Positions 23,732 through 49,307 of a DNA stretch of 64,000 nt are shown here, in pieces. Under the pieces are notes generated by a model that made no database searches, was not told the DNA's origin, and was given only the letters and a program-made list of their open reading frames with translations. The DNA comes from Minisyncoccota bacterium. GTDB taxonomy: Bacteria; Patescibacteriota; Minisyncoccia; Minisyncoccales; GCA-002788555. Position numbers and translations under genes: made by a program. Within the stretch, counting starts at the first letter, position 1, and each line of letters opens with the position of its first letter. The stretch spans positions 13,071-77,070 of the forward strand of contig JAQUPA010000001.1 in the NCBI GenBank assembly GCA_028716825.1, in the 5' to 3' direction.

Positions 23732-23849
23732 AATTGAGAAGATTGACAGGAAAGAACTTTAAAAATTGAATTTACCCTATTAAATCCCGCAAAGCGGGAG
23801 CGACAAAGTCGCTATTCAATAGGGTAAGATAAGAATTTCTTTGGTGCGA

Positions 23850-26836
<2,987 letters not shown>

Positions 26837-27122: not shown

Positions 27123-28850
27123 ATGAAGGACTACAAAGTAAAAACACAATTTAAAGAAATCCTAGAGCCAGAAGAGATATTACTCGATACCAAAGAAAGA
27201 AAAAATAAAGAAAAAGGTAAACTAGAGTTGCCGATACAAAATGGCGTTTTTTTTGTTGTTTTTTCTGTTTTTATATTGCTATTTTTATTATTACTTTTTA
27301 GGACCGTTTATTTTGTATCTGCAAAAGGAGAAGAGATGAGCGAGGCGGCAGTGGAAAATTATTTAAGGAAAGTTTACACAGAAGCACCAAGGGGCATTAT
27401 ATATTCTAAAGACAAAAAAGTGCTTGTTAAGAATGCTAAAGATGAAGAGGCAAAAAGTACAGAAAAAAAGAAAGAAAAAAAATATTATAGAAATTATATA
27501 GATAGTTTTTATTTCTCTTTTATTCTTGGTTATGAGAGAGAAGCAACAGAAGAAGATCTAAAAGGAGATACTGATTATTATGAACCAGGTGATTGGGTTG
27601 GGAAAGATGGAGTTGAAAAAGAGTATGAAAAATATCTACGGGGCAAAAAAGGCGTTAGAGAAAAAGTGGTGAACGCCAAAGGGAAAATTGTCTCAGACAA
27701 GGTCAAAAAAGAGCCAGAGATAGGGGATAGTCTTGTTTTAAACATAGATGCTGGACTTCAGAAAAAAATTTACAGAGAATTAAAGAGAAAATCTTCTGGC
27801 AATGATGCTGTAGGTATTGCCCTAAATCCTCAAAATGGAGCGGTTCTCGCGCTTGTTTCAATACCTTCAAATGACAATAATGTATTTTCAAAAAAATCAT
27901 TATCCGCAAGTTATCTTCGCAATCTTCAAAAGAGGGGGAGTATTTATAATATAAATAAAGCCATAAGCGGAAGATTTCCTTCGGGCTCAATTATAAAACC
28001 ATTAATTGCTTCCGCCGCCTTAGAGGAAGAAGTTGTATCTTCTCAGACAACAATTAACTGTACTGGCGAAGTTATAATTCCAAACCCTTGGTATCCAGAA
28101 AAACCCACAATAAAAAAAGACAACAAAACTCATGGTTTGACGGATTTAGAAAAAGCCATTGCAGAATCTTGTAATGTTTTTTTCTTCACAGTTGGAGGAG
28201 GTTATCAAGATATTAAGGGGCTTGGAATGTCAAAGATTAAAAAATATTTAGATTTATTTTATATAGAAGACGAATTGGGGATTGATTTACCGGGTGAAAT
28301 TGCTGGGTTTGTGCCTTCTAAAGATTGGTTTGAAAAAAAAATGAAAAAACAAATGCGCAGGAATTGGTCAATTTCTGATGTTTATGACGCTTCAATTGGC
28401 CAGGGATTTTTTTCCTCCCCTCCGCTTCATATGGCAGTTGCACTATCTGCAATTGCAAATGGTGGTAAAATTTATCAACCCCAAGTTGCAGATAAAATTG
28501 AAACTTCCAAAGGAAAAGTTTTAAAAGACATAAAGCCAAAAATTTTACAAAAAGACTTTATAAGTAAAGAAAATATCAAAATAGTGAAAGATGCAATGAA
28601 GTCTTGTGTTACCTCTTCTTCCGGTTCTTGCCGTCAGTTAAATTCTCTACCAGTATCTTCGGCTGGCAAAACGGGTACTGCAGAATCAGATAGGGGAGAC
28701 TTAACGCATGCTTGGTTTGTGTCTTTTGCTCCATATGAAAAACCTGAAATTTTCCTTTTAATTTTTGTTGAATACGGCGGCGGAGGCTCTGATGTTGCAG
28801 AACCTATCGCGAGAGAGGTTTTGGAATGGTATTTTAAAGATAAGAAATAA
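27123..28850 (+). CDS. penicillin-binding protein 2 / FtsI-type transpeptidase
   Basis: N-terminal TM helix. SxxK (SGSIIK), SxN (ESCN) and KTG (AGKTGTAE) motifs. Confidence 0.85.
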   Translation: MKDYKVKTQFKEILEPEEILLDTKERKNKEKGKLELPIQNGVFFVVFSVFILLFLLLLFRTVYFVSAKGEEMSEAAVENYLRKVYTEAPRGIIYSKDKKVLVKNAKDEEAKSTEKKKEKKYYRNYIDSFYFSFILGYEREATEEDLKGDTDYYEPGDWVGKDGVEKEYEKYLRGKKGVREKVVNAKGKIVSDKVKKEPEIGDSLVLNIDAGLQKKIYRELKRKSSGNDAVGIALNPQNGAVLALVSIPSNDNNVFSKKSLSASYLRNLQKRGSIYNINKAISGRFPSGSIIKPLIASAALEEEVVSSQTTINCTGEVIIPNPWYPEKPTIKKDNKTHGLTDLEKAIAESCNVFFFTVGGGYQDIKGLGMSKIKKYLDLFYIEDELGIDLPGEIAGFVPSKDWFEKKMKKQMRRNWSISDVYDASIGQGFFSSPPLHMAVALSAIANGGKIYQPQVADKIETSKGKVLKDIKPKILQKDFISKENIKIVKDAMKSCVTSSSGSCRQLNSLPVSSAGKTGTAESDRGDLTHAWFVSFAPYEKPEIFLLIFVEYGGGGSDVAEPIAREVLEWYFKDKK

Positions 28851-28913
28851 TAATTAAATATAAATAATGTTAAGACTTCTCTTATGAGAAGTCTTAATTT
28901 AACCTTTAAACCA

Positions 28914-28943
28914 TTGACAAAAATATATATGATATGTTATAAT
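28914..28943 (+). promoter_or_regulatory. sigma70-type promoter (TTGACA, 18 nt, TATAAT)
   Basis: TTGACA at 28914-28919 and TATAAT at 28938-28943. Confidence 0.6.
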
Positions 28944-28949
28944 ATAGAT

Positions 28950-29430
28950 GGAAAGGATAAAGATAGCACATTAAGATAAAAAGTGAGGGGAAAGGTTAGA
29001 TTGCGATCTCTTCGGACCAAATGCTTACAAAAGGTTAGCTCACAAAAGCTTTCCGGGTGGCAAAGGTCTGAGGAGGTCGCAACCACTTTTTCTCTCATTC
29101 GAAACATTGAGGCTATTTCCCCTGGGTCTTCGGACCTACATGGATGGCCACGGAGAGGACGAATTCTTTCGTCCTCTCCCACCTATTTGAATTTGTTAAT
29201 AATATTAGTAACTTCAAATAGGTGAACGAAAGGAGGTGAAAATTGGATAATAAAAAACAAGCAACAAAAGGACGCAAAATTTATCTTTCGGCTTCATGTG
29301 AGGTATGTACTTCCCTCGAGGAAGCAAAGGCTCTCACAGAGGGCCGAAAGTAAACATACAAGGCGAGGCTATGGTAGTATTACCTAGCCTCCCTATCTCT
29401 GAATTTTTCACTTTAAAGTTGAAAATTCAG
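28950..29430 (+). ncRNA. candidate structured non-coding RNA(s) of unknown identity, GC-rich relative to the genome
   Basis: Nested long-range helices, including a 16-bp helix with 3 G-U pairs (29003-29018 with 29065-29080). UUCG-loop hairpin GGTC-TTCG-GACC. 10-bp hairpin GGAGAGGACG/CGTCCTCTCC at 29152-29179. A downstream second structured half contains an AGGAGGTG-TTG mini-ORF of 36 codons. Confidence 0.4.
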
Positions 29431-29538
29431 AAATAGGTAATGTTGTTGACAAAGTTATCTTTATTTCGTATAATAGTAAATGTAAAAGAATATTTAATAA
29501 AGTATTCAAAAAAGGTCAAAATAAAAAAAACCAAAAAA

Positions 29539-30852
29539 ATGAAAAATATTAAGAATTTTTTAATTCAGAAAGCAAAAATATTGTTTTTGGGAGCATGCGT
29601 ATTTCAGCTTGCTTTTTTGCCAATTGGTCTTGCACCAAAAACAGCTCTTGCTGCCAGTTCCAACGATGTAATATATGGTGGAACATACTCTCTTTCTGAT
29701 TTAGCTGCAAAAATTAACTCAGGAAGCGATGGTAGACATGGTGATATTGGTGTTATTTTCAAGACTCTTGGAATTTATCCAAATGAATTCAACGGAAACA
29801 TTGATGGCGCAAATCGTCAAACTGTTGATGGTTGGGTTTATAAAGATGGGAGAGTCGTTTTGGCGAATGGCACAGTTGTTGCTTCCGGAAATGTTATTTC
29901 TGCAGGAAGAAGTAATCTTTCAGGATCTACACCAGATGTTTTTGGATTGCCAATCTATTGGAGACATCCCTCTGTGAGTTTTAATTCCTCAAGACTATCT
30001 GCTTTTATTCATATTGTAAATGGTAGGTTTTCTTGGGCGGTAGTTAAGTCTTGTGGAAATCCAATCAAGGTTTGGGGTTCACCTTCTGCTACTTTACATA
30101 AAGAAATAAGAAACGTTACAAGAAATAGCGGTTGGTCAACAGGCACTGTTGAAGGAAGAAGGGGAGATACAGTTGAGTATAGGCTTACTTATGACGTTGG
30201 TGACGAATCCTTAAATAATGTCTGGCTTTATGATGCTTTGCTAGCAAATACTGCTGATGGCAAAAAAAGCTACAGAGAATATTTATCTAACCCATGGGGG
30301 CTTGAACCATCGCAATATTTTCTTTGGTACCCAAGTGGAGTAGATATTGCAGGATATAAAGTTTCAAGAATGCTTGCTTGGTATGCTCCAGGAAGAGCTC
30401 CAAGAGCGCATGGTATTGCAACTTTTAGAGCAAAAGTAGAAAGTAATACACCAAAAGATACTTATATCTGTAATGACGCGGCTTTAAGAGCAGATAGGTT
30501 AGGAGTTCGTTTTAGTAACAAAGTTTGTGTTAAAATTATTGTTCCTTCGGGACCAACTCCAACACCAACTCCTACTCCAACACCAACACCAACGCCAACT
30601 CCTACTCCGACACCTACTTCTACTCCAACTCCAACTCCAACTCCAACACCTGAAGGTGAGGTCCTTGGAGCGTATGTTGAGAAGGAACTTCCAAAAATTC
30701 CAATCACAGGTGCTTCTTCGGCAGTAGCTCTAACATTTGTTTCTTCCGCATTGGGTTATGGAGCAGTTGCAAGAAAGAAACTCAAAGAAAAACTTTTGGG
30801 TTCAAAACTCCAGAACGCAATGGATATTGCAAGAAGGAAGAAAGGACTCTAA
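29539..30852 (+). CDS. cell-surface protein with signal peptide, (PT)n linker and sortase-type C-terminal sorting signal
   Basis: Signal peptide MKNIKNFLIQKAKILFLGACVFQLAFLP. A 30-residue PTPTPT... repeat at 30553-30650. C-terminus KIPITGASS, then a hydrophobic segment and an RKKLKEK tail (LPxTG-like). Confidence 0.65.
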   Translation: MKNIKNFLIQKAKILFLGACVFQLAFLPIGLAPKTALAASSNDVIYGGTYSLSDLAAKINSGSDGRHGDIGVIFKTLGIYPNEFNGNIDGANRQTVDGWVYKDGRVVLANGTVVASGNVISAGRSNLSGSTPDVFGLPIYWRHPSVSFNSSRLSAFIHIVNGRFSWAVVKSCGNPIKVWGSPSATLHKEIRNVTRNSGWSTGTVEGRRGDTVEYRLTYDVGDESLNNVWLYDALLANTADGKKSYREYLSNPWGLEPSQYFLWYPSGVDIAGYKVSRMLAWYAPGRAPRAHGIATFRAKVESNTPKDTYICNDAALRADRLGVRFSNKVCVKIIVPSGPTPTPTPTPTPTPTPTPTPTPTSTPTPTPTPTPEGEVLGAYVEKELPKIPITGASSAVALTFVSSALGYGAVARKKLKEKLLGSKLQNAMDIARRKKGL

Positions 30853-30922: not shown

Positions 30923-30950
30923 TTGACAACAATTTTTATTTCCTTAAAAT
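30923..30950 (+). promoter_or_regulatory. groESL promoter (TTGACA, 16 nt, TAAAAT)
   Basis: TTGACA at 30923-30928 and TAAAAT at 30945-30950. Confidence 0.6.
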
Positions 30951-30956
30951 ACTAGA

Positions 30957-30983
30957 TTAGCAGTCAAAGGTCGAGAGTGCTAA
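30957..30983 (+). promoter_or_regulatory. CIRCE element (HrcA operator)
   Basis: TTAGCAGTC-N9-GAGTGCTAA against the consensus TTAGCACTC-N9-GAGTGCTAA, directly upstream of groES. Confidence 0.85.
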
Positions 30984-38154: not shown

Positions 38155-39441
38155 TTATATATACTTTTTATATTCGTCGCTAATTTTTTTTGCGATAAAA
38201 GGCCAAGAGTGATTTTTTGATACGTATTTATAGCCATTTTTAATGAGTTTTTCTTGGAGTCTTTTTGAAGAATATAGCATTTGGACTTTGTTTTTTATGT
38301 CAACGGGACTACGTGCTTTAAATAAAAGGCCTGTTTTTTTATGAGAAATTATTTCTTTTAATCCGCCAACGGCAGATACAATAACAGGTATTTTTGTTGC
38401 CATTCCTTCGAGTGCTACAAGACCGAACGGTTCATAGTAAGAGGGGACAATCAAAGCATCTGCGGCAGAATAAAAATTTCTTAATCTTCTGTGATTTATC
38501 ATACCGGTAAATTTAATGAGATTTTCAACTTTTTCTTTTTTTGCTTTCTCGAGTAATCTTTCATATTCTTTAAAATCTAAAACATTTTTTTCTTTGCCAT
38601 GTATTTTCCCTCCAACAATAACAATTTTAATATTTGGAATTTTCTTTTTTAGAAGTTTGGTTGCGGTTATTAAAGATCCAATTCCTTTACGCCACTCAAG
38701 TCGGCCAACGTACAAAAGTACAAAGTTTTTTTGGTCTATTCGTAAGCTCTCTCTCGCTTTTTCTTTTGAAAGTGGCTTAAATTTCTGAAGATTTACGCCC
38801 CCAGGGATAACTTTTACTTTTCCTGGAATGGAATCATAGATTTTAACCAGCGATTCTTTTTCGCTTTTTGCAAGACTTACGACTGCGTCAGCTCTCTCTA
38901 CCGTTTCTTTTTCTACGTCAAATCTTTTCTGAAAATAATCAGTTTCGTTTTTGTTCGTTAAATATTTCTTTTTTGTGGCTTGCCTGATTTTTCCTAAAGA
39001 ATGAAAGTTTTCAATAAGCGGTTTTGAAAATTGGCATTTTGCTTTTAACGCCATCCATGCTCCATCCCAGTAATGCCCATGGAAAACATCGTAGTTATCT
39101 TTAACTTCAATGAATTTCAAGAAATTTAAATAAACTTCTGGCAATATATTAAAAAGTTCGGTTTTTTGGACATAACTTTTCTTACCGCCTCTTAACCTAA
39201 CCACTCTTGCGTTTTTGTTGATTTGAGAAATATGTTTTTTATTTGTGGAGTCCCAACGAGTAAAGACATCTACTTTATGTCCTAATTTGCCGAGTTCTTC
39301 GGCTAAAGATCTTACGTAGATGTTTTGTCCTCCAGTTTCTTGAGAACCAAGATGTGCGAGGGGGTCGGAGTGTATGCTGAACATCGCTATTTTCAGAACG
39401 TTTTCCTTCCCGTTTTTAGTATTTTTTCCCATTTTAAGCAA
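38155..39441 (-). CDS. glycosyltransferase family 4, MshA/sucrose-phosphate-synthase-like
   Basis: GGQNIYV near the N-terminus and EPFGLVALEGMA near the C-terminus. Confidence 0.7.
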   Translation of the reverse strand: MLKMGKNTKNGKENVLKIAMFSIHSDPLAHLGSQETGGQNIYVRSLAEELGKLGHKVDVFTRWDSTNKKHISQINKNARVVRLRGGKKSYVQKTELFNILPEVYLNFLKFIEVKDNYDVFHGHYWDGAWMALKAKCQFSKPLIENFHSLGKIRQATKKKYLTNKNETDYFQKRFDVEKETVERADAVVSLAKSEKESLVKIYDSIPGKVKVIPGGVNLQKFKPLSKEKARESLRIDQKNFVLLYVGRLEWRKGIGSLITATKLLKKKIPNIKIVIVGGKIHGKEKNVLDFKEYERLLEKAKKEKVENLIKFTGMINHRRLRNFYSAADALIVPSYYEPFGLVALEGMATKIPVIVSAVGGLKEIISHKKTGLLFKARSPVDIKNKVQMLYSSKRLQEKLIKNGYKYVSKNHSWPFIAKKISDEYKKYI

Positions 39442-39602
39442 ATAAAAGAGAAATCCCTGGAAACATCCCAGAAATTAATCCAATCATCTATTTTATGTTA
39501 AATATTGGAAATTTTCAAGAATAAGCTTTTTGCTTGATTTTGAGCAATCATTGAAAAAAAACAAGAAATATGTTAAAAGGAAAAGGTAATTTTATAAAAA
39601 AC

Positions 39603-39788
39603 ATGAGGAAATGTGAAATTTGCGGGAAAACATATACTGTAAAAACCGTTCGAAAGAAATTAAGAGGTAAATATAATCCCACAAGCAAACAAAGGAAGTA
39701 TCCAAATTTACAATGGGTGCGTTTGCCATCTGGCAAGCGCGTCAAAGCTTGCACAAAGTGTATCAAGACCCTTTCAAAAACGAAATAG
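39603..39788 (+). CDS. rpmB: 50S ribosomal protein L28
   Basis: MRKCEICGK...NPTSKQRKYPNLQWVRL...ACTKCIKTL matches the L28 core (N.TKRRF.PNLQ). ATG 39603 is preferred over the upstream ATG 39570. Confidence 0.75.
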   Translation: MRKCEICGKTYTVKTVRKKLRGKYNPTSKQRKYPNLQWVRLPSGKRVKACTKCIKTLSKTK

Positions 39789-39802
39789 TTTCAATCAGAA
39801 GC

Positions 39803-39874
39803 CGGGGCATAGTATAATGGTTATTATGCAGGGCTGGGGGTCTTGTGACCTGGGTTCGATTCCCAGTGCCCCGA
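39803..39874 (+). tRNA. tRNA (probably Pro, anticodon GGG; anticodon arm weak)
   Basis: Acceptor CGGGGCA/TGCCCCG (7/7 paired), T-arm CTGGGTTCGATTCCCAG, D-loop AATGGTTA. The anticodon stem needs G-U pairs around the loop CTGGGGG. No CCA encoded. Confidence 0.55.
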
Positions 39875-39906
39875 AACAAAGGTCTTTTTAAAAACTTATA
39901 AGAACC

Positions 39907-40299
39907 ATGGAAGGACCATTTTCAAATTTAGACCAACCACCAAATGGACAAGAAAATAATGAAAAGAATTTAGAAGACCAGTTAAAGAAAACAAGCGAAG
40001 TATTAGAAAAAGCTGAGCAGCCAATGATTAATAGAAAACGTATGAATATTATAGGAGAACAAATACGTAAACTTGGCTTTTCAGATCAAAAGCAAAAAGA
40101 GATGATGCCGGTCTTGATAAAAAATGAAGAAATTATAAAGATGTGCGATGAAATTTTAGAATTAGAATCCAAAACTACTCCACAAGTAAATGCAGAAACC
40201 GATTTGACGACAAAGGAAGAGATAGAAATTAAAGAGGGACAGTTAAGATCAAAAATTGAGGAAGGATCTTTTGACGCTGAAGAAGAAAAAGCGGCTTAA
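39907..40299 (+). CDS. acidic hypothetical protein
   Basis: 130 aa, Glu/Lys-rich. A terminator-like hairpin follows at 40322-40349. Confidence 0.45.
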   Translation: MEGPFSNLDQPPNGQENNEKNLEDQLKKTSEVLEKAEQPMINRKRMNIIGEQIRKLGFSDQKQKEMMPVLIKNEEIIKMCDEILELESKTTPQVNAETDLTTKEEIEIKEGQLRSKIEEGSFDAEEEKAA

Positions 40300-40356
40300 T
40301 TGTTTAATAAATAAATTCGTAAAAGCGGGGCTTTACACTCCGCTTTTATATTAAAC

Positions 40357-40384
40357 TTGAAAAATAAAGAATTTATTGTATAAT
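40357..40384 (+). promoter_or_regulatory. sigma70-type promoter (TTGAAA, 16 nt, TATAAT)
   Basis: TTGAAA at 40357-40362 and TATAAT at 40379-40384. Confidence 0.5.
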
Positions 40385-40432
40385 AAAAGGGTTAGTCTAG
40401 TATATAACATAAAGAGTTTAGGAGGTGCGAAG

Positions 40433-40693
40433 GTGGATAAAAATAGAGCTAACCAATTGCGAAAAGCTGTGGATTCAGCGCTTAATGAAGTGCTGGAAGC
40501 AAAGACTGAGATAGATGAAGCCAAGGAAGAATGGCGAGAAATTGTATCTAGTCATTCAGTAAACAAAGCTGAGAAGATCATCGCAGAAAGGAATATTTTC
40601 CAAAGGGCTAAAGAAGCCCGGAGAAGACGAGACGAGGCCTGGAAAAAGTATTATAACTTATCCGATGAGTTAACCAGAATATTAAGGTCTTAA
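40433..40693 (+). CDS. small helical hypothetical protein (island gene A)
   Basis: GTG start 5 nt after TAGGAGGTG. GC about 45%. 86 aa, coiled-coil-like. Confidence 0.5.
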   Translation: MDKNRANQLRKAVDSALNEVLEAKTEIDEAKEEWREIVSSHSVNKAEKIIAERNIFQRAKEARRRRDEAWKKYYNLSDELTRILRS

Positions 40694-40712
40694 GGAACAG
40701 GGGGGGATAAGA

Positions 40713-40964
40713 TTGAATTTCGCAGATTCGTTGGATGAGAGGCTTTTTTGGAACGAAGAAGAGCGAAAGAGTGTCTTGCGAGAGATAGAACAACTTTCCA
40801 AAAAAGCAGACGAAACTTCTTCCGCCCGTCGCAAGAAAAAGATACTCACAAATATAGATGAGATGTGGAAGAAGAATTTCGATCTGTTCGACGAGTGGCT
40901 AAACATAGTTTCATGCCAAGCCGAAGAATTAGATAATGACGTAGAGCATCGAGAAAGGAGGTGA
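40713..40964 (+). CDS. small hypothetical protein (island gene B)
   Basis: TTG start after a GGGGGGG run. Its stop overlaps the RBS of gene C. Confidence 0.45.
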   Translation: MNFADSLDERLFWNEEERKSVLREIEQLSKKADETSSARRKKKILTNIDEMWKKNFDLFDEWLNIVSCQAEELDNDVEHRERR

Positions 40965-40969
40965 AAGAG

Positions 40970-41269
40970 ATGAAGCTTTCCATAGGACCTTTAAGTGTTT
41001 GGGTTTACAAAAAGATCTCTGCAGGGGGCAGAAGCGTGGTAACTGCGGAGCTCGAAAAAGATGACGGAACCGTTGTCATAGTTTCTCCCGATCTTTCAGG
41101 GCAGAAGGCCAACATAAGAGAGCTCTGCATTATACCAAATTTTCCTTCCTTCGAGGTCGCCTTCGAGGACGGTAATGTCTTACGTATATTCATCCAGGAT
41201 GACGAGATCATGGTCGTGGATTTACGTAGAGAGGTTACCAGAATTCCTTTTTACAAGAAGGAAACCTAG
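40970..41269 (+). CDS. small hypothetical protein (island gene C)
   Basis: ATG 5 nt after AAAGGAGGTG. 99 aa. Followed by a hairpin and T-run terminator at 41303-41329. Confidence 0.5.
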   Translation: MKLSIGPLSVWVYKKISAGGRSVVTAELEKDDGTVVIVSPDLSGQKANIRELCIIPNFPSFEVAFEDGNVLRIFIQDDEIMVVDLRREVTRIPFYKKET

Positions 41270-41476
41270 GTCAAGTAAGAAAAGATAAAGGAGGTGGTTC
41301 ATGCGGTCTGAAATACGGCCGCTTTTTTATTTCTGTTTTCAAATATATCTTAGCATCTTATTGACTTTTCAGGAAAATCATTTTATAAAATAAAGTAAGC
41401 ATTTTTAAATTAGTTCCTTAAAATTAAGGGATTTTTATATGTTTTGTAAGGTTGTTCGGAGAAGGGAAAAGAGAAG

Positions 41477-42118
41477 GTGGTGAAAATGAAAAAGTTTTGG
41501 ATTTATTTTGCAATTATAATGTCCGTCCTTTTGATAGGGGGTATTATAATAACTGCTGTTCTTGGCATTCTTGATGATATCTATGCTTGGGCTTGGGTGG
41601 GCCTTGTTATGTTGCTAATAGCAGTATTATTTATAGCGGCATACGGCGAATATATTATATCAGCCATCGGCCTTGTCGATTTGTACTTCTTCTTTGCAAT
41701 GATTTTCAACTTCCAATGGAAATACTTTCTGTATTTCTTAGCAACAAGTGCTATTCTTGTTCTTGTAGCTATTATATACGTATTTCTTAAAGAAATTGGA
41801 TTGGTTGATTTTGAAGAATTCTTTAGTTCCTCTGAAGGAAAAAGTTCTTCAGGGGGTTCTTCAGGGGGTTCTTCAGGAGATTCCTTTATAGGAAGCTCAA
41901 AGAGCAGGAAAGAAAAGGAATATTGCAGAAAGTGTGGAAGCTTTAACCATAGTACCTTTGCACATGGTAGTCATGCAGAAAAGTCTCCAAGCGAATGCAG
42001 GGAATGTGGAAGTCAATACCACATAACTTTGGATCACAAAGAGTGTGGAGTTTGTGAGAGTACAGAGCATGATACTTCAGAACATATACCATTCAGCGGT
42101 AAATTAGAAGGAGATTGA
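41477..42118 (+). CDS. membrane protein with C-terminal triple Cys/His repeat (zinc-ribbon-like)
   Basis: Four to five TM helices, an SSGGSSGGSSG linker, then three repeats CRKCGSFNHSTFAH / CRECGSQYHITLDH / CGVCESTEHDTSEH. ATG 41486 is the likelier start. Confidence 0.55.
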   Translation: MVKMKKFWIYFAIIMSVLLIGGIIITAVLGILDDIYAWAWVGLVMLLIAVLFIAAYGEYIISAIGLVDLYFFFAMIFNFQWKYFLYFLATSAILVLVAIIYVFLKEIGLVDFEEFFSSSEGKSSSGGSSGGSSGDSFIGSSKSRKEKEYCRKCGSFNHSTFAHGSHAEKSPSECRECGSQYHITLDHKECGVCESTEHDTSEHIPFSGKLEGD

Positions 42119-42150
42119 GTCCCTTATGGGCCAAGAGACAATATTAAAAC

Positions 42151-42186
42151 GCGGGAAGTCTAAGGATTTCCCGCCTGTTTTATTTT
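42151..42186 (+). terminator. rho-independent terminator
   Basis: GCGGGAAGTCTAAGGATTTCCCGC hairpin followed by CTGTTTTATTTT. Confidence 0.7.
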
Positions 42187-42246
42187 CAAATATAAAAACA
42201 AGATTATTTATTCCTGAAAGATTTTCGAGATTTGATTTTTTCCGCC

Positions 42247-42275
42247 TTGTAAAGGGAAGTTTTTTATGTTATACT
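42247..42275 (+). promoter_or_regulatory. sigma70-type promoter (TTGTAA, 17 nt, TATACT with extended TG)
   Basis: TTGTAA at 42247-42252 and TATACT at 42270-42275. Confidence 0.5.
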
Positions 42276-42362
42276 GTCTTTGGTTTGAGTTAACTCTCGT
42301 GTTTCTTATTTAAAGTTATCTTTAAATTTTGTACTCCGAGGGGATCAAACGGGGTCGATTAG

Positions 42363-42414
42363 TCCTTTGAAACAGCGGTTTTTTACCGCTCCTGCTTGGC
42401 AGGGTTTCAAAGGA
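42363..42414 (+). promoter_or_regulatory. three-way-junction RNA structure in the 5' UTR of the RRM protein gene
   Basis: P1 TCCTTTGAAAC/GTTTCAAAGGA (11 bp) encloses P2 AGCGG-TTTTTT-ACCGCT and P3 CCTGC-TTG-GCAGG. Confidence 0.5.
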
Positions 42415-42456
42415 TAAATGCCTGTTATTAAACAGGATAAAATTTAGAGAAAACGT

Positions 42457-42723
42457 ATGGAAGAAGCAAAAAACAAGCTCTACGTTGGAAACTTGGCATA
42501 TGAAATCAACGATGAAAAGCTGAAAGAAATTTTTTCAGCTGCCGGTGAAGTAACAGAAGCCGTTGTTATCATGGACAAGATTTCCGGACGTTCAAAGGGT
42601 TTTGGCTTTGTTACAATGAAAGATGACGCTGCAGCTGAAAAAGCTATTGAGCAGCTAAACGAAACAGACCTCGAAGGAAGGAAAATCATTGTTAACGTTG
42701 CAAGACCAATGCGCGAAAGATAA
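42457..42723 (+). CDS. RRM-domain RNA-binding protein
   Basis: RNP-2 LYVGNL and RNP-1 KGFGFVTM. Confidence 0.85.
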   Translation: MEEAKNKLYVGNLAYEINDEKLKEIFSAAGEVTEAVVIMDKISGRSKGFGFVTMKDDAAAEKAIEQLNETDLEGRKIIVNVARPMRER

Positions 42724-42744
42724 AATTGATTATCTTAGCAGAAA

Positions 42745-42772
42745 AAGCGGATCTTATTGATCCGCTTTTTTA
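42745..42772 (+). terminator. rho-independent terminator
   Basis: AAGCGGATCTTATTGATCCGCTT hairpin followed by TTTTT. Confidence 0.8.
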
Positions 42773-43025
42773 TTGTTTTTCTATAACTTGGTTGAAGGAG
42801 AAGAGTAATGGGAGGAAGAGGGTCGGCTTTAAAAGACCGTTTTCCCCGAAAGTGTTCCTGTAAACGGAATTACACTTCCGAGAGCTCTCTATTTTATCAA
42901 TTGAGTTTATTCTTGAATAAAATCGGAATTTATTGTATACATCAGAATTAACCTATTTAGCACATAGTGCCAAAAGAGGTTTAAAATATATAAAAAAAGG
43001 AGGAAGTTGAGTTAAAGGAGGGGAG

Positions 43026-43817
43026 GTGATTTGCTTGTCATTTAACGATAACCACAAACTGGAGCTTGAAAACGATGAGGACTTGGTAAAGCTGGCTCAG
43101 CAAGGAAACGAAGAAGCCCAGCGAGTCTTGTTAGAGCGTTATAAATACATAGCAAGCACGAAAGCAAGTTTGTATTTTCTTCCCGGAGGAGATCAAGACG
43201 ATTTATTCCAGGAAGGGATGATTGGCCTTTTTAAGGCAATTCGCGGTTATCAAGAGGGGCGCGATTCTTCTTTTAAGAGCTTTGCTTTTTTGTGCGTTTC
43301 TCGAAGTATAGTCACAGCACTAATACTAGCAAATCGCCGGAAGCACAAAGCTCTTGATGGTTATTCCTCTTTAGATAAATACGTTAGCCCAGATGGGGAA
43401 GAAGGCAATAACCATTTGCCGGCCAGCTACTTGGAAGATCCAGAAGAGATTTTTATCAACAATATAGAAAGAGAGGAGATGGAGGTCTTCTTACGAGAGA
43501 AGTTGTCACCCTTTGAATTTGCGGTAGTTCAGCTATTTATTCAAGGATTTTCTTACAGGGAAATAGCCAAAAAGCTGGGCATATCCGAAAAGCAGGTTGA
43601 CAATGCTCTCTGTAGAGCGAGGGTTAAGACCAAGCGGTATGCAGAATACATGGACACAAAGGATAAAAAAAAGGAGGTGTTAAAGGTGCCAATTAGCGGA
43701 TACACCATCTTTATGAAAGAGCAGTACAGAAAAGGACTAACAATGGATCAAGCTCTTGAGGCCTATAGAGAGCTATCACCGGAGAAGAAGGAAGTGTTGT
43801 CAAACGAAGCAAAGTAG
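43026..43817 (+). CDS. sigma-70 family sigma factor, SigH (Spo0H)-like, with a ~60 aa C-terminal extension
   Basis: Region 2 DLFQEGMIGLFKAIRGY...SFKSFAFLCVSRSIVTAL and region 4 SYREIAKKLGISEKQVDNALCRARVK, co-linear with Bacillus SigH. GTG 43026 or TTG 43035 start after AGGAGGGGAGGTG. Confidence 0.75.
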   Translation: MICLSFNDNHKLELENDEDLVKLAQQGNEEAQRVLLERYKYIASTKASLYFLPGGDQDDLFQEGMIGLFKAIRGYQEGRDSSFKSFAFLCVSRSIVTALILANRRKHKALDGYSSLDKYVSPDGEEGNNHLPASYLEDPEEIFINNIEREEMEVFLREKLSPFEFAVVQLFIQGFSYREIAKKLGISEKQVDNALCRARVKTKRYAEYMDTKDKKKEVLKVPISGYTIFMKEQYRKGLTMDQALEAYRELSPEKKEVLSNEAK

Positions 43818-43871
43818 ATAAGGGACTCTAATAAGGTTTTTCCTGAAGCTGAAAGAGGAGGTTCAGAACCG

Positions 43872-43988
43872 GTGATACCAGCGTCTCTGGAGGGAGTCTT
43901 CAAATCATTGAAGGTTTTCCTCGAAGAGGAGCTCGAGAGTACCAGGCGCAAGGAGGCAATCCTTACAGGATTGATCGACCTACTTTAG
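43872..43988 (+). CDS. possible 38-aa small ORF
   Basis: GAGGAGG sits 10 nt before GTG. Followed by the terminator at 44012-44039 (GCGGG-A-GTC-GCAA-GAC-C-CCCGC then TTTTT). Weak. Confidence 0.2.
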   Translation: MIPASLEGVFKSLKVFLEEELESTRRKEAILTGLIDLL

Positions 43989-44286
43989 ACATACACAATC
44001 GCAACATGTGGGCGGGAGTCGCAAGACCCCCGCTTTTTCTATTTAAATTAGCAGTCTAAACACTTGACTGCTAAATTTATTTTTTTATAATTAAGTATAT
44101 TTAGTAATTAAACAATTAAAAAATCCTGCATGTAATCTTGATTGCTGGATTTTTAAGAAACCGTTTTTTCTTTAAGTTATCTCTTTTTAAAAGACAACCC
44201 TTAAACAACCTACGCTTTCCGAAAACCAGCAATAAAACGGCTGGTTTTTTTACAAAAGGCCGAATTTTTAAACTATTTCAAAATTT

Positions 44287-44517
44287 ATGATCAAGAAAAA
44301 TTTTCACAGCGTTCCTCAGGGTGATGCTTGGGCAATAAAAAAAGAGGGTGTTGATAGGCCGGTTTCAAAACACAGAACACAGGCCATTGCAGAAGAAAAA
44401 ACTCGTGTTCTTGCTAGAAGGGTTGAAGTAGAAGCAATCTATCATAACAAACAGGGGATTATTAAAGGCAGAGATAGTTATGGAAATGATCCATGTCCAC
44501 CAAAAGACAAAAATTAA
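44287..44517 (+). CDS. DUF2188-family small protein
   Basis: HSVPQGDAWAIKKEG...RDSYGNDPCPPKDK matches the DUF2188 pattern (HVVP..GW.VK.EG ... DSYGNDP.PP). Confidence 0.6.
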   Translation: MIKKNFHSVPQGDAWAIKKEGVDRPVSKHRTQAIAEEKTRVLARRVEVEAIYHNKQGIIKGRDSYGNDPCPPKDKN

Positions 44518-44550
44518 AGGTCACAATATAAACTAACTAAAAATCAAAAT

Positions 44551-44730
44551 ATGGATTTTAATAAGTTTCTTAGTGAAATAAGAAAGAAAGATGGGGAAGA
44601 AACTGCTCGGAGAGCAAATACTCTTGTTAATTTTGAAACCTTAAAAGAGTTGCTTATCCGGAAAGAAATTATTTCAGAAGGAGAATTTAGAAAAGTCAGA
44701 GAAGAAGTTTGTGAAAGGTATAAAAAGTAG
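44551..44730 (+). CDS. 59-aa hypothetical protein (preferred over the antisense ORF 44544-44792)
   Basis: Co-directional with its neighbours. Charged helical peptide MDFNKFLSEIRKKDGEETARRAN... Confidence 0.3.
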   Translation: MDFNKFLSEIRKKDGEETARRANTLVNFETLKELLIRKEIISEGEFRKVREEVCERYKK

Positions 44731-44757
44731 ACAAGATCAAGGATAAAAAACTTAGGC

Positions 44758-45441
44758 ATGAAATGTTTATTTATTGATGAGACAGAATGCAAACAAAGAG
44801 ATCCTAATTTTTTCGGAGTCGGTGGACTTTTTGTTGACTCCTTTTTCTATAAAACCCTAAAAAGATCTTTTAAATCTTGTTTTGAGAGTTTGGGGTGGGA
44901 TGAGAAAAAGGAGCTTAAAGGAAGCTATCTATTTTCTTCACGGAAAGGAGATAAAAATGTGCCGGTGGATAAAAGAATTAAGCTTGTAAGGGAAATTGTT
45001 GATTGTACAAGAGCGAAACAGCGATCACGAATTAATTTTTATTTTACAAGCAACGGGAAAAAGAGAAGTGAAAAAAATTATTTATTCTTATTAAAGAAAA
45101 TAATTAAATCACTTAAAAATTATCCTGATAAAAACGATAAAAATTTAGTAATTATAACAATACATCAGTGTTCTGAATTTAAAGAAAAGAATATCAAAAA
45201 AATAATTAATGAAAATTTGAAGGCAAGACTAGTTTTATTTGAAAAACCCTTTATAATCCACTCAGAAAACGAAGCATGCGGTATGATTATTGTCGATATT
45301 TTAAACTACCTAAAAATGTGGATTGTCCTTAATCCCGAGGAGAAAAGTCAATTAAAATTATTTCCGAGTGTTAACCAAAAAAAATTAGCACAAGTTACAG
45401 AAATATTAGCAACAATTAAAAACATCAAAGATGTAAAATAG
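44758..45441 (+). CDS. hypothetical protein with a DUF3800-like N-terminus
   Basis: N-terminal MKCLFIDETE (the hhhDESG-like start typical of DUF3800). 227 aa. Confidence 0.4.
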   Translation: MKCLFIDETECKQRDPNFFGVGGLFVDSFFYKTLKRSFKSCFESLGWDEKKELKGSYLFSSRKGDKNVPVDKRIKLVREIVDCTRAKQRSRINFYFTSNGKKRSEKNYLFLLKKIIKSLKNYPDKNDKNLVIITIHQCSEFKEKNIKKIINENLKARLVLFEKPFIIHSENEACGMIIVDILNYLKMWIVLNPEEKSQLKLFPSVNQKKLAQVTEILATIKNIKDVK

Positions 45442-45467
45442 GAAATCTAATTTATAAATAAAAATTT

Positions 45468-46091
45468 ATGTCAAAAAATAAAGTAGATAATCCAATAGTA
45501 AAAGTAGACTACGAAGAAGCTAAAAAACTTGCAGATTTAGGTGCTATTGTTCAAGATTTAAGTTTTGTAATGAAAACGTGTTCGCGTCTTGAGAGACTAT
45601 TAAAAGAAAAATCCAAAGACAGTTTGTTAATCGAAAATATGTGGACTGCTGTATTAATAAGATATGCTAGATGTTTCGCAGACGGGAAAAGATTTGGTTT
45701 GTCAGAATCAATATTTGACAATTTAAATGGTGAGCCACATAAAGCGCACAAATTTTATCTTGATTTGAGAGACAAACATATTGCTCATTCTGTAAATCCA
45801 TTTGAGCAAGTGGCGGTAGGACTAATATTGTCTCCGCAGAACATTGAAAGTAAGAAGATAATTAAGGTTGTAACAATGACTATGAGGCATATGATAACAG
45901 ACATTGAGGGAGTTCATCAGCTTGGATGTTTAGCAAAGGTTTTATTAGAGGAAGCATGCAACATAGCCAAGCAATACGAAAAAGAGATATTAAAGAAAGC
46001 TAAAAGTATTCCTATTGATGGTTTATACAATTATCCCAGACTTCGTATGATTGCGCCTGGGCCTGAATCGGCAGATAAACCAAGGTCATAG
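45468..46091 (+). CDS. hypothetical protein
   Basis: 207 aa, no recognisable motif. Adjacent to the DUF3800-like gene. Confidence 0.4.
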   Translation: MSKNKVDNPIVKVDYEEAKKLADLGAIVQDLSFVMKTCSRLERLLKEKSKDSLLIENMWTAVLIRYARCFADGKRFGLSESIFDNLNGEPHKAHKFYLDLRDKHIAHSVNPFEQVAVGLILSPQNIESKKIIKVVTMTMRHMITDIEGVHQLGCLAKVLLEEACNIAKQYEKEILKKAKSIPIDGLYNYPRLRMIAPGPESADKPRS

Positions 46092-46134
46092 TGCAAAAAA
46101 CTAGAAAATTTATTTAATTAAGGAGTAAAAATTT

Positions 46135-46539
46135 ATGAATCAAGATGATTATAATGCAAGAAAAAGAAAAGAAGAATTATTTCATTTATTTAAAGAATCG
46201 GTATTAGGTCGTTTGAATTTCTCAATAATTGTTAGTACATTGTCAGCAACCTTGCTTATAGTTGCAACTTTTAACAAAGAGTTAATTCCGGTTAATGATT
46301 TTACAAAAACTCTTCTTACAATTTTATTATTGCTTATACCGAGTGGATTATTTCTATATCTTTATGAATTAAATCAGACTGGTGTTGATTCAGCAAAAGC
46401 CTTGAAAAAAGAAATTAATGAAGATTTGAAGCAAAGAAAAAAGAATATATTTCTTTGGTTTAGCGTCTATTTTCCGTGGATCGGCCTTGCCATTATATCG
46501 TTTGTTATTTTCTCAATAATTTGGATAATTTGGCGATAG
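46135..46539 (+). CDS. small membrane protein (3 TM helices)
   Basis: Hydrophobicity pattern. RBS AAGGAG before the ATG. Confidence 0.45.
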   Translation: MNQDDYNARKRKEELFHLFKESVLGRLNFSIIVSTLSATLLIVATFNKELIPVNDFTKTLLTILLLLIPSGLFLYLYELNQTGVDSAKALKKEINEDLKQRKKNIFLWFSVYFPWIGLAIISFVIFSIIWIIWR

Positions 46540-46686
46540 GTAAAGGCAAGGATTGCTGAAAATTGAAAAAATAAAATTAGACAGCCAATTTACAAATTTT
46601 TGTTTAAATATTTCCGCGATTTTGTTAGAATGAGTGGGTTAGGAGAATGATGAATCATGAATCACGAATAAAGCGAAAATAAATCT

Positions 46687-46917
46687 ATGAGAAGACAAAA
46701 AATTGGTATTATAATGATTGTTATAGGAGTATTGGGATATATTTATAATCCTTTAATGGATGCCGGGAGTAACTGTGTTCTTGATGGTGGTTGTGGTTTT
46801 GGTTCGGCTATGCCAAGAATACCTTATTTTTTAATTCCGATTTTCTTGATTATTTTAATCATCGGGATTATTCTTGCCGTCATTAAAGAGAAAAACCATG
46901 GCAAAAATGAAAACTAA
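46687..46917 (+). CDS. small membrane protein (2 TM helices) with a GGCGFG motif
   Basis: Hydrophobicity pattern. Confidence 0.4.
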   Translation: MRRQKIGIIMIVIGVLGYIYNPLMDAGSNCVLDGGCGFGSAMPRIPYFLIPIFLIILIIGIILAVIKEKNHGKNEN

Positions 46918-47302
46918 ACTCATTGCGCCGTGCGGGATGAATTGCAATATTTGTATGGCATATTTGCGAGAAAAAAATAAATGCCTTGGCTGTAGATATA
47001 TTACCCCAAAAAATTCTATTTCCCGCGTAAAGTGCAGGATTAAAAATTGCAAAAAGCTTAAAGAGACAAGCTCTGGCTTTTGTTTTTTGTGCAAAGATTT
47101 TCCCTGCAAGAGAATAAAGCATTTGGATAAAAGATACAGAACAAAATACAATATGAGCGAGATTGAAAACCTTTTATATATTAAAAAATTTGGAGTAAGA
47201 AAATTTATACAAAAAGAAAAGAAAAAATGGACCTGCAAAAAATGCGGTGGTACAATCTGTTGTCATAGAGGAGTATGCTTTAGCTGTGGTTCTAAGAAAT
47301 AA
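46898..47302 (+). CDS. Cys-rich DUF3795-like protein
   Basis: MAKMKTKLIAPCGMNCNICMAYLREKNKCLGCR...CRIKNC...CFLCKDFPCKR...CKKCGGTICCHRGVCFSCG. The CG.NC..C.AY...C.GC pattern is typical of DUF3795. Confidence 0.5.
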   Translation: MAKMKTKLIAPCGMNCNICMAYLREKNKCLGCRYITPKNSISRVKCRIKNCKKLKETSSGFCFLCKDFPCKRIKHLDKRYRTKYNMSEIENLLYIKKFGVRKFIQKEKKKWTCKKCGGTICCHRGVCFSCGSKK

Positions 47303-47407
47303 CTTTTTTAATACGAATTTTTATTTGACAATCTTAGGTTTTTTTGTTAATAATATATATAGCGATTTTGGGAAATTCCCAAAATCTTTTTATTTAAGGA
47401 GGCAAAG

Positions 47408-47641
47408 ATGGATAGGTATTTCTATACTTTCCGTTACCAGACAATTCCCAGCTGTAAAGATTTTCACCTGTCTGATATTTCTGTCAGAAGTATAAGGGCG
47501 GAAAACGAAGAAGCAGCAATCCAAAGGGCCAAGAAAATGGTCAAGGCCCAGGAAAGAAAGCTGAATAGCGGGTGTAAAATCTTTGAGTGCGATCTTATAC
47601 TGGTCGCCAAAGAGGTCTGGAGAAATCCAGATAATATCTAA
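47408..47641 (+). CDS. small hypothetical protein (high-GC)
   Basis: RBS AAGGAGG before the ATG. Followed by a terminator at 47667-47686 (CCCT-GCAA-AGGG then TTTTTT). Confidence 0.45.
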   Translation: MDRYFYTFRYQTIPSCKDFHLSDISVRSIRAENEEAAIQRAKKMVKAQERKLNSGCKIFECDLILVAKEVWRNPDNI

Positions 47642-47848
47642 TAAGGAGGTGAGCTCATCATTGAAAAACCCTGCAAAGGGTTTTTTCAATATAAATTACT
47701 TTTCTTTATTTTATAGAAAGAAATTGACAGAAGATTATTTTGTGCTATATTCTAAAATCCAAACAATGTTCTTTGATTTTGGTCTTTAAGTGGACCTTTA
47801 TATATTTCCCGTAAAGCCGTAGAAGAATAAGATATTTAGGAGGTTAAA

Positions 47849-49225
47849 ATGAGATCAAGAGACATTTTTGACAGTCTTTCGCCGATTGACTATCGATACT
47901 GGGACGAGGAAGTGGCGAGGTATCTCTCCGAGAATGGGTTCACCACTTACAAACTTCTAGTAGAGCTTGCGCTTGCAAAGGTGCTTCATCGTCAAGGTAT
48001 CTGCTCAAAAGCCGCTGTCCAAGAAATCGAGTCGGCTTGTAGTAAGGTGAGGACCGCTGAGGTGTATGACGAAGAAGATCGAATTCGTCACGACATCCGT
48101 GCCCTCGTAAACTGTATCCGCGCCAAGGTGAGCGAGAAAACGAAGCCATACGTTCATATGACGGCAACCTCGTATGACATCGTTGATTCAGCAAACGCTG
48201 TTCGTTACCAGGAGGTCGTTAAGGACGTACTTCTTCCAACACTCATGAACTTGGAAGAGGTTCTCATCGCGATTGCACTTCGCGAAGCCGAGACAGTACA
48301 GGTTGGTAGGACGCACGGCCAGCATGCAGTTCCGATTACTTTCGGATTCGCGATCGCCGGCTATGTGAGTCGCCTGGGCGGGTCAATTGAGAAGTTGAAA
48401 AAGCTTTCTTCTGAGCTTCCTGGGAAGTTCTCGGGAGCAGTCGGAGCATATAATGCTTCGTCGCTTTTCTTCGATGACCCCGAGGACTTTGAGGCCAAAG
48501 TGCTCGCCGAGTTAGACCTTAAGCCAGCTGGGCACTCAACGCAGATTGTGCCACCCGAACCTCTGACTCGGCTTTTCTGCGAAGTTACGATCGCGGCAGG
48601 AGTACTGGCCAACTTGGCCGATGATATGCGGCATCTCCAGCGGACGGAGATCGGAGAGGTGGGTGAGGAGTTTGAAGCGGCGCAGGTTGGATCTTCCACC
48701 ATGCCGCAGAAACGCAATCCCATCAACTTCGAGAACGTTAAGAGCTTATGGGAGATTGTTATGCCCCGCATCGTGACGGTGTTTATGGATCAGATCAGTG
48801 AGCATCAGCGCGACCTTACCAACTCTGCGTCTGCACGGACTTATGGCGAGGTTATCACCTACGTGGTTTCAATGGCAAAGCGCCTGACGCGCACGATGAA
48901 AAAGCTTACAGTTGATCGTGCTAACCTGGAGCGAAACCTTGCCATACAGGAAGGGTTGGTGGTTGCAGAGCCTCTCTATATCATCCTTGCAGCGTTGGGA
49001 CATCCTGATGCCCATGAGAAAGTGAGGATACTCACACTGCAGGCTCAAAGCGAGAAACGGCCGCTCCAAGAGGTTTTTGCCGATGACACAGAGATGAAAG
49101 TGTATCTTGAGAAGATGACGCCATATCAACGGCAGATCCTTTCAGATCCGTCTCTCTACATCGGCATTGCTGCAAAGAAAGCAAGAGATGTCGCAGAACA
49201 TTGGAAGCAAAGGTTAGGAGGTTGA
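47849..49225 (+). CDS. purB: adenylosuccinate lyase
   Basis: 458 aa, fumarate-lyase superfamily (GSSTMPQKRNP). GC about 52%, far above the background. RBS TAGGAGG. Confidence 0.85.
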   Translation: MRSRDIFDSLSPIDYRYWDEEVARYLSENGFTTYKLLVELALAKVLHRQGICSKAAVQEIESACSKVRTAEVYDEEDRIRHDIRALVNCIRAKVSEKTKPYVHMTATSYDIVDSANAVRYQEVVKDVLLPTLMNLEEVLIAIALREAETVQVGRTHGQHAVPITFGFAIAGYVSRLGGSIEKLKKLSSELPGKFSGAVGAYNASSLFFDDPEDFEAKVLAELDLKPAGHSTQIVPPEPLTRLFCEVTIAAGVLANLADDMRHLQRTEIGEVGEEFEAAQVGSSTMPQKRNPINFENVKSLWEIVMPRIVTVFMDQISEHQRDLTNSASARTYGEVITYVVSMAKRLTRTMKKLTVDRANLERNLAIQEGLVVAEPLYIILAALGHPDAHEKVRILTLQAQSEKRPLQEVFADDTEMKVYLEKMTPYQRQILSDPSLYIGIAAKKARDVAEHWKQRLGG

Positions 49226-49247
49226 ACTTCGAGGTATTTATGCCCGT

Positions 49248-49280
49248 GGGCGCTACTGTCAATTCAGTGGCGCCCTTTTC
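49248..49280. terminator. hairpin terminator between the convergent purB and porB genes
   Basis: GGGCGCTACTG...CAGTGGCGCCC followed by TTTTC. Confidence 0.6.
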
Positions 49281-49307
49281 ATTTAAGAAAATTTCTCTTT
49301 ATGAGTT

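Follow-up and report, generated by a model that had tools for sequence, protein, structure and literature searches.

What is transcribed from the interval between a PBP2-type transpeptidase gene and a surface-protein gene in the genome of a Minisyncoccota bacterium, and does its product act as an RNA or through a protein? The interval lies in a 64-kb stretch of contig JAQUPA010000001.1 (the window, to which all positions refer) and was described in an initial annotation as a promoter-driven, structured, non-coding region, with a divergent RNase P RNA, a 6S-like RNA, or a novel leader or small RNA (sRNA) as candidates. It was compared with related loci (L003–L057), i.e., contigs encoding PBP2 homologues with 59–89% identity, all of them metagenomic and several cut inside the island discussed here. 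The region comprises two features under one promoter: a clade-specific structured RNA, made up of a leader, a conserved hairpin element (H) and two further hairpins (hp3 and hp4), and a cassette encoding a small protein.

The unit opens with promoter P1 (28914–28943, + strand), in which TTGACA and TATAAT are separated by 18 nucleotides (nt) and TG precedes the −10 hexamer (extended −10), a 12/12 match to the consensus and exactly the promoter that had been proposed. Exact TTGACA-N16-18-TATAAT arrangements occurred at two sites in the whole window vs. 0.08 expected, both at this locus. P1 was 94.6% identical in L004 and was also kept in L003, L008, L052, L055, L056, and L057; its transcription start is predicted near 28948–28950. 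A second promoter, P2 (29446–29474, + strand; TTGACA, 17 nt, TATAAT), serves the surface-protein gene and forms the 3′ boundary of the unit; in L008, its equivalent is a near-exact duplicate of that locus's own P1. Because the surface-protein gene has its own perfect promoter, it does not need P1, and the region is not its leader in any simple sense.

The stretch from 28950 to 29440 folded with −190.3 kcal/mol on the + strand, compared to −119.7 ± 6.4 kcal/mol for shuffled sequences (z = −11.0), and with −164.9 kcal/mol (z = −8.7) on the − strand. The minimum-energy fold contained 163 pairs, including 19 G-U, and since G-U pairs favour the + strand, the structure was considered strand-specific. 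The description of a promoter-driven, strongly structured unit whose 5′ half is non-coding RNA was borne out. Its base composition had been overstated (45–50% GC against 30% for the genome): the region had 41% GC overall with 100-nt peaks of 46–52%, and the window mean was 35%. The 5′ half contained a long hairpin (28983–29098, + strand; 33 pairs, 7 G-U), consisting of an outer stem (28983–28997 with 29084–29098), stems S1 (29001–29018 with 29065–29082), S2 (29022–29028 with 29057–29062), and S3 (29033–29040 with 29047–29054), and the apical loop CACAAA (29041–29046). The 16-bp helix annotated at 29003–18 with 29065–80 was real, and formed part of an 18-bp helix within this hairpin. An additional outer helix (28986–93 with 29116–23) could be drawn as eight perfect pairs but was not in the minimum-energy fold. 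L004, the closest homologue, lacks its 3′ partner but keeps the alternative pairing of 28983–28997 with 29084–29098, with G-U to G-C changes. The annotated UUCG-loop hairpin (UGGGUC-UUCG-GACCUA, 29123–29138, + strand) was confirmed and is specific to the window, being absent from L004, and the spacer around it (29101–29151) was only 55% identical between the two.

Within the long hairpin, an 86-nt core (H, 28999–29084, + strand) was common to other Pacebacteria contigs. Homologues were found at the same locus in L004/L005, L057, L052/L053 (more diverged), and L056 (partial, at a contig end); the L057 copy retained the stem GACCUCCUCCGGCC/GGUUCGGGGGAGGUC, the apical CACAAA loop, and GCUUUCUGGGUGG, and was followed by a U-tract. 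A covariance model (R1) built from the window, L004, and L057 gave 102 bits for the window and recovered L052, which was not in the training set, at E ~0.001–0.002 and the partial L056 copy at E = 6.6; no second copy of H was found with it in the window or the other loci. In a model-fitted alignment of four sequences, 92.5% of the cells paired, and five pairs had changed on both sides, four of them in the main stem. Only 5–11 of 500 shuffles reached these pairing values, and sliding the partners dropped pairing to 38–60%; covariation from three sequences alone was not significant. The retention of pairs through compensatory changes thus lends modest support, from four sequences in a model-fitted alignment, to H as a structured non-coding RNA. 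The long hairpin was 94.1% identical to that of L004, compared to 75–80% (DNA) for the PBP2, groES, and surface-protein genes and ~54% for the spacers. A protein-coding 5′ half was ruled out by a 1-nt indel relative to L004 within the long hairpin, which shifts the open reading frames (ORFs) on both strands, and an rRNA-derived pseudogene or repeat was ruled out by the lack of any similarity to the region elsewhere in the window.

Two observations bear on the autonomy of H. In L052 and L057, H was followed by a canonical stem and U-tract, which makes a free-standing sRNA gene plausible. In L004, H, hp3, and hp4 were kept without the small ORF, which indicated that H is independent of the ORF. 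The hairpin hp3 (29152–29179, + strand; GGAGAGGACGAA/UUCGUCCUCUCC) is GC-rich and terminator-like, lacking a clean U-tract; it had been correctly placed, with 12 bp rather than the 10 reported. L004 has hp3 as well, and two of its pairs have changed on both sides there (C-G to U-A and G-C to A-U). The AU-rich hp4 (29180–29224, + strand; 20 pairs), which lies directly 5′ of the ribosome-binding site of the small ORF, also showed two pairs changed on both sides, so that for hp3 and hp4 together 4 of 30 pairs had changed on both sides relative to L004 with pairing kept. As a separate observation, the pyrimidine arms of S1 and hp3 are anti-Shine-Dalgarno-like (GAUCUCUUC; GACCUCCUCC in L057) and their purine arms resemble a strong Shine-Dalgarno sequence (GAGGAGGU), with no start codon following such arms; most of the island hairpins in related loci show arms of this kind too.

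The 3′ half had been read as non-coding RNA embedding a mini-ORF, with no convincing ORF in the region. The AGGAGGTG element followed by a 36-codon ORF was indeed present, and comparison with L006 indicated that the ORF is conserved as protein. It spans 29243–29353 (+ strand), starts with TTG, encodes (M)DNKKQATKGRKIYLSASCEVCTSLEEAKALTEGRK, and is preceded by a Shine-Dalgarno sequence (AGGAGGUG, 29231–29238, + strand) 4 nt 5′ of the start. Its homologue in L006 (6112–6225) encodes MKTTEQPVRKGRILYLSSCGEVCTSLEEAVALSRERN, with 53% protein identity and AAGGAGAG as Shine-Dalgarno sequence in front. Differences between the two ORFs numbered 11, 10, and 27 at codon positions 1, 2, and 3, respectively (37 codons); 13 codons differed only synonymously, and the EVCTSLEEA core was identical despite five silent changes. 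The other frames carried stops, and the RNA folds of the two genes differed. The excess of third-position differences combined with the differing folds points to selection on the protein rather than on RNA structure, and the pattern of substitutions identifies 29243–29353 as a genuine small-protein gene. The pairings annotated in this half do exist: CTTTCGGC/GCCGAAAG lies in a 22-pair hairpin inside the ORF (29280–29304 with 29330–29354, + strand), and GAGGCTA/TAGCCTC lies in hp7, an 11-pair hairpin (GAGGCUAUGGUA/UACCUAGCCUC; 29365–29391, + strand) 3′ of the ORF. In L006, the position of hp7 is occupied by a different GC-rich hairpin. The AU-rich hp8 (29392–29437, + strand; 19 pairs) closes the cassette and has a homologue in the hairpin that follows the ORF of L006 (alignment score 59).

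The small ORF, hp7, and most of hp8 were absent as a block from L004, in which the deletion or insertion boundary falls inside hp8. The block is bracketed by the similar hairpins hp4 and hp8, which aligned with a score of 33 compared to 20.4 ± 3.8 for shuffles. The small peptide is hydrophilic, charged, and Cys-containing, without a membrane helix. Searches of Pfam, PHROGs, PADLOC, and 1.84 billion representative proteins turned up no relatives, and neither did an alignment search of metagenome and viral sequences with the small ORF; the other island ORFs likewise gave nothing in Pfam, PHROGs, or PADLOC. An AT-rich pair of small ORFs (MELYENLF.../VEVYEDLF...) was noted directly after PBP2 in L007 (4757–5180) and L052/L053 (2129–2526); one of the two in L007 includes ISLSPCMDCLVERAKG, with a faint likeness to the IYLSASCEVCTSLEEAKA core of the window protein, without homology being established.

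The genomic setting is conserved around a variable interval. In the window, the gene order is nusA, pyrophosphatase, 23S ribosomal RNA (rRNA; 23845–26835), 5S rRNA, PBP2 (27123–28850, the protein being 100% identical to one from a Candidatus Pacebacteria metagenome-assembled genome), the region, a gene for a 437-amino-acid protein, groES, groEL, and galT. The order 23S-5S-PBP2 ... groES-groEL was common to all related loci retrieved, while the interval between PBP2 and groES was highly variable. In L009, L010, and L054, it held only a CIRCE operator and no island. L004, with a PBP2 72% identical at the protein level, kept the promoter, leader, long hairpin, hp3, and hp4, without the mini-ORF, hp7, and most of hp8. 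Other mixes of GC-rich hairpins with small, often Cys-rich orphan ORFs were present in L006, L008, L052/L053, L055, L056, and L057. The islands of L008, L052/L053, L055, L056, and L057 opened with the same promoter and the start ATGGAAAG, to which L006 had only a looser match. The locus is therefore a strain-variable island between the PBP2 gene and groES.

Known RNA families did not account for the region. In the 751 nt from 28800 to 29550, Rfam gave no match to RNase P, 6S, tmRNA, or SRP RNA at E ≤ 10, and in the whole window none of these families was found at gathering score or E ≤ 0.05. Permissive scans of the region, of 39400–49500, and of the whole window returned only rRNA, tRNA, and chance-level matches (e.g., SSRC38, 31 bits vs. 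a cut-off of 80), and five related loci yielded rRNA only. The suggested check for tmRNA and SRP RNA thus came back empty, and ARAGORN detected no tmRNA in the window. Matches to cis-regulatory Rfam families in the region were at chance level, and the downstream cargo differed in every locus, giving no support to a known riboswitch or cis-regulatory leader. Wider searches were equally negative. A search of genome contigs with PBP2 returned only two distant Firmicutes PBPs; a metagenome search with the hairpin as pseudo-protein (six tiled peptides) found no relative; viral searches gave 41 unrelated chance matches for the promoter-and-start 18-mer and none for the stem 20-mer, the hairpin pseudo-protein, or the motif of a hairpin block shared by L008 and L052 (described below); and blastn of the region against phage records gave no match. 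The apical motif CACAAANGCTTTCYGGGTGG occurred in three viral contigs and was dismissed as chance, since every occurrence fell within a single long phage ORF, where neither a hairpin nor a covariance-model match was seen. An integron-like cassette array (promoter, small ORFs, and hairpins) was also considered, but no integrase was present among the annotated neighbours, in a check that did not extend to attC core sites. In the literature on non-coding RNAs of the Candidate Phyla Radiation (CPR)/Patescibacteria, nothing relevant was found.

Between P1 and the hairpin, the leader carries AGCACAUUAAGAUAA (28965–28979, + strand), a candidate boxA-like site for antitermination by Nus factors. The motif AG[CUA]AC[AC]UU[ACGU].A.. 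was found ~15–30 nt past the predicted start in all islands with the ATGGAAAG start. Judging a candidate boxA by the rRNA leaders of the same organism is an approach that has been applied to CRISPR-array leaders (PMC7665894). The leader motif matched a site upstream of this organism's own rRNA: with a weight matrix built from six other island leaders, the window site at 28965 ranked third among 127,976 window positions, and a site ~90 nt upstream of the 23S rRNA (23753–23765, AGAACUUUAAAAA) ranked 10th. In L006, the corresponding 23S-leader site (AGCUCAUUAACAA, 636–648) ranked fourth of 19,432. It differs by one mismatch from the Escherichia coli boxA, GCUCUUUAACAA. The 23S-leader sites of the window and L006 were also seen to adjoin the 23S processing stem on its upstream side. 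From the resemblance to the 23S-leader site of the same organism, we infer that the leader motif is a boxA-like element for Nus antitermination; nusA was the only Nus gene seen in the window. Such a device would be sensible for a long, untranslated, hairpin-rich transcript.

Taken together, the locus is best explained as a composite, lineage-specific accessory transcription unit of a Candidatus Pacebacteria genome that produces a stable structured sRNA and expresses a small protein by read-through, to which we assign a probability of about one half. Transcription would start near 28950 from the consensus, extended −10 promoter P1, and the boxA-like motif within the first 30 nt would recruit Nus factors, so that the polymerase could pass through a lengthy hairpin-rich stretch that is not translated. 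The main part of this RNA would be the ~116-nt hairpin, whose 86-nt core H appears to be a real RNA element kept in related genomes. The product would be a stable sRNA of ~230–280 nt ending at least partly at hp3/hp4, a reading that draws on the retention of H without the ORF in L004, the terminators that end H in L052 and L057, and the cargo that differs everywhere. It may act, possibly in trans, through its conserved apical region (loop CACAAA and GCUUUCYGGGUGG) or by protein binding. Read-through of hp3/hp4 would then give access to a separate cassette with the ribosome-binding site, the gene for the 36-codon Cys-containing protein, and hp7/hp8. Of the candidates originally offered, the novel leader or sRNA is thus the one that fits the evidence.

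Several points weigh against the composite unit. The island is dispensable, being missing in the relatives L009, L010, and L054. Approximately five lineages carry H, and the covariation statistics come from four sequences in a model-fitted alignment. Identity of H was uneven, at 94% with L004, 66% with L057, and 54% with L052 at a similar PBP2 divergence of 70–75%, a pattern equally compatible with recent exchange of modules and with selection; such an exchange, instead of uniform constraint, may account for the high identity with L004. The tail of hp3 is CACCUAUUUGAAUUUG and the terminator scan made no call. As hp3 has no proper U-tract, transcription may not stop there; the small ORF and even the surface-protein gene may lie on the same transcript, with H as its leader. 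The start, ends, and abundance of the transcript are all predictions from the DNA.

In the main alternative, which we regard as possible and lean against, a single long mRNA from P1 would include the small ORF, and perhaps the surface-protein gene too, with all of 28950–29440 as its structured 5′ part. H with hp3/hp4 would then be a cis-acting leader and no separate sRNA; its role could be attenuation or antitermination, or it could govern RNase III processing or transcript stability. The absence of a canonical terminator between P1 and P2 in the window counts in favour of this alternative. The order of promoter, leader motif, H, GC hairpin, AU hairpin, ribosome-binding site, and variable ORF recurs in L052 and loosely in L006, a boxA-like leader would fit read-through of the hairpins, and a long near-perfect duplex would be a substrate of the RNase III type. 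However, L004 has H without any ORF before P2, a canonical terminator separates H from the ORF in L052, and in L057 H stands at the end of its unit, followed directly by a U-tract and a new promoter. With different cargo in every locus, there is no common gene to regulate, and P2 is itself a perfect promoter.

An unlikely explanation is that the island is a horizontally exchanged cassette or the remnant of a mobile element in a recombination hot spot between PBP2 and groES. The GC-rich hairpins and small ORFs would be of foreign origin, and the hairpins would be terminators or recombination structures that have no RNA function of their own. It agrees with island content that differs in every related contig and is absent from three, with modules that are GC-richer than the genome, and with the clean presence or absence of the small-ORF cassette between two similar hairpins. 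The block from promoter to H was 88–95% identical to L004 between flanks of ~54% identity, and H was far more diverged in L057 and L052. On the other hand, the neighbouring genes (NusA, pyrophosphatase, rRNA, PBP2, GroES/EL, and GalT) include no integrase, transposase, or phage gene, no relative was found in phage records or viral contigs, and the window holds no second copy. The G-U-rich, strand-asymmetric pairing and the G-U to G-C and compensatory changes argue for selection acting on RNA rather than on a palindrome in the DNA.

A type I toxin-antitoxin-like module, with the small ORF as toxin and its structured mRNA under RNA control, would account for a small ORF in a very structured mRNA behind a strong promoter and for its cassette-like presence or absence. 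We consider it very improbable, as the peptide is hydrophilic and charged and has no membrane helix, unlike a hydrophobic toxin, the sole antisense promoter-like site is weak (9/12, 29226–29199), and PADLOC, Pfam, and PHROGs gave no match.

A divergent housekeeping RNA (RNase P, 6S, tmRNA, or SRP RNA) is effectively refuted: the unit has the strong promoter, GC-rich composition, and structure of such genes, rnpA is present as annotated (3654–3992, between rpmH and yidC, read from translations) so that the genome must encode an RNase P RNA at some position, and GAGGGGAAAGG looks loosely like RNase P CR-I, a visual resemblance only, but the covariance-model and ARAGORN searches were negative, the GAGGGGAAAGG stem is absent from L057 and L052, the element is missing at the same locus in L009, L010, and L054 and different in L006 and L008, as would not be expected of a housekeeping RNA, the long hairpin is an almost continuous duplex of ~36 nt per arm with small internal loops only and no 6S-type central bubble, and the L052 transcript is laid out as H plus terminator and not as a 6S-like rod.

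Further structured elements were seen in the islands of the relatives. A GC-rich multi-hairpin block of ~200 nt (CCGCGGGUCCCCCGUCUGACCGCGG ... GGGGGGCAUGGGG ... CCCCAUGC) was shared by L008 (5733–5946) and L052 (3158–3348), with 76% identity over 215 nt, several stems that kept pairing through changes, and no Rfam match. It lies 3′ of a GC-rich ORF that differs between the two loci and may be a second structured RNA of the island. A hairpin of ~110 nt was conserved between L008 (~4940–5060) and L057 (~2535–2660), with outer arms GAGAAGGG.../...CCCUUCUCUC and an inner stem (GGAUCUCUCGGG/CCCGAGAGACC) that resembles the H stem, which suggests a hairpin family evolving by duplication. A joint reading, which is speculative and in our view rather doubtful, would unite H, the ~110-nt hairpins, and the L008/L052 block as a new class of strain-variable accessory stable RNAs in the CPR. 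These would be transcribed in an rRNA-like manner, from consensus promoters with boxA-type leaders beside the 23S-5S genes. With their Shine-Dalgarno-like GGAGG and anti-Shine-Dalgarno-like CCUCC arms, such RNAs might act on the ribosome, on the transcription machinery, or in host/phage conflict.

Other features of the window were recorded in passing. The surface-protein gene (29539–30852, + strand) encodes 437 amino acids. Its translation, which shows a signal peptide, a PT-rich linker, and a membrane anchor at the C-terminus, suggests that the product is secreted or anchored; Pfam and PHROGs gave low-complexity matches only. The groES gene is preceded by a promoter (TTGACA ... TAAAAT; 30923–30983, + strand) and a CIRCE-like inverted repeat (TTAGCAGTC-N9-GAGTGCTAA), a layout found in all related loci. 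No 16S gene stands beside the 23S-5S genes in the window, which indicates that the rRNA genes are unlinked. The 23S alignment contained several insertions relative to the bacterial model, and one of them holds a sub-threshold match to RAGATH-32 (24169–24233, + strand; 30.4 bits vs. a cut-off of 41.8). A gene for a 23S rRNA intervening-sequence family protein (PF05635, E = 2e-28) was found distant from the 23S gene, at 51448–51810 (− strand). A small gene (42458–42724) appears from its translation to encode an RNA-binding protein of the RRM type, which is seldom found in bacteria, and is preceded by a strongly folding 5′ region (42330–42420). Between its terminator and a sigma-70 family gene (43026–43817) lies a sub-threshold match to the ylbH leader (42740–42849, + strand; 36.8 bits, cut-off 50, E = 0.00036 for the window). 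The adenylosuccinate lyase gene (47849–49225, + strand) has 53–59% GC vs. 35% for the window and folds strongly, and may be horizontally acquired. Upstream in the window are genes for type IV secretion pilin-like (PF18895; 20889–21290, + strand) and PrgI-like (PF12666; 14137–14598, − strand) proteins.

Regulatory RNAs and small proteins of the CPR have hardly been described. This locus contributes a candidate of each kind, namely a structured RNA family outside Rfam with a usable covariance model and a conserved 36-residue orphan protein, both behind the strongest promoter matches in 64 kb and in a strain-variable island beside a cell-surface protein gene. Their present importance is modest, as contigs carrying the element are so far few and all metagenomic. 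A more general lesson is that GC-rich, highly folded, seemingly non-coding stretches of AT-rich genomes can conceal real small genes. A genuine boxA-like leader would also mean that, in the CPR too, Nus-type antitermination reaches transcripts other than rRNA.

Among known systems, 6S RNA (RF00013) is likewise promoter-driven, ~200 nt long, and largely double-stranded, but the window RNA lacks a model match, the central bubble, an end-closing stem, and conservation across relatives. With RNase P RNA (RF00010/RF00011), it shares the character of a GC-rich structured RNA in an AT-rich genome encoding rnpA; it differs in having neither a model match nor a P4/CR-I/CR-V core, in being too short, and in being variable. 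As in the boxA/Nus leaders of rRNA operons and CRISPR arrays, a short motif 15–30 nt into a strong-promoter transcript stands ahead of a long untranslated structured RNA (PMC7665894). The window sequence departs from the E. coli boxA consensus, however, and what it precedes is not an rRNA or a CRISPR array. Processive antitermination RNAs located after promoters include phage HK022 put and Bacillus EAR. Compared by description only, these have in common with H a conserved stem-loop 3′ of a strong promoter and 5′ of terminator-like hairpins and variable cargo, whereas H in L057 ends its unit and is not promoter-adjacent. Dual-function sRNA loci that also encode a small protein are represented by RNAIII/hld, SgrS/SgrT, and SR1/SR1P. 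The window locus has no homology to these and its RNA showed no sign of target base-pairing, and its ORF is a separable cassette, absent in L004 and in another context in L006; what it shares with them is the architecture of one promoter from which a structured RNA and an ORF of <50 codons are arranged on the same strand.

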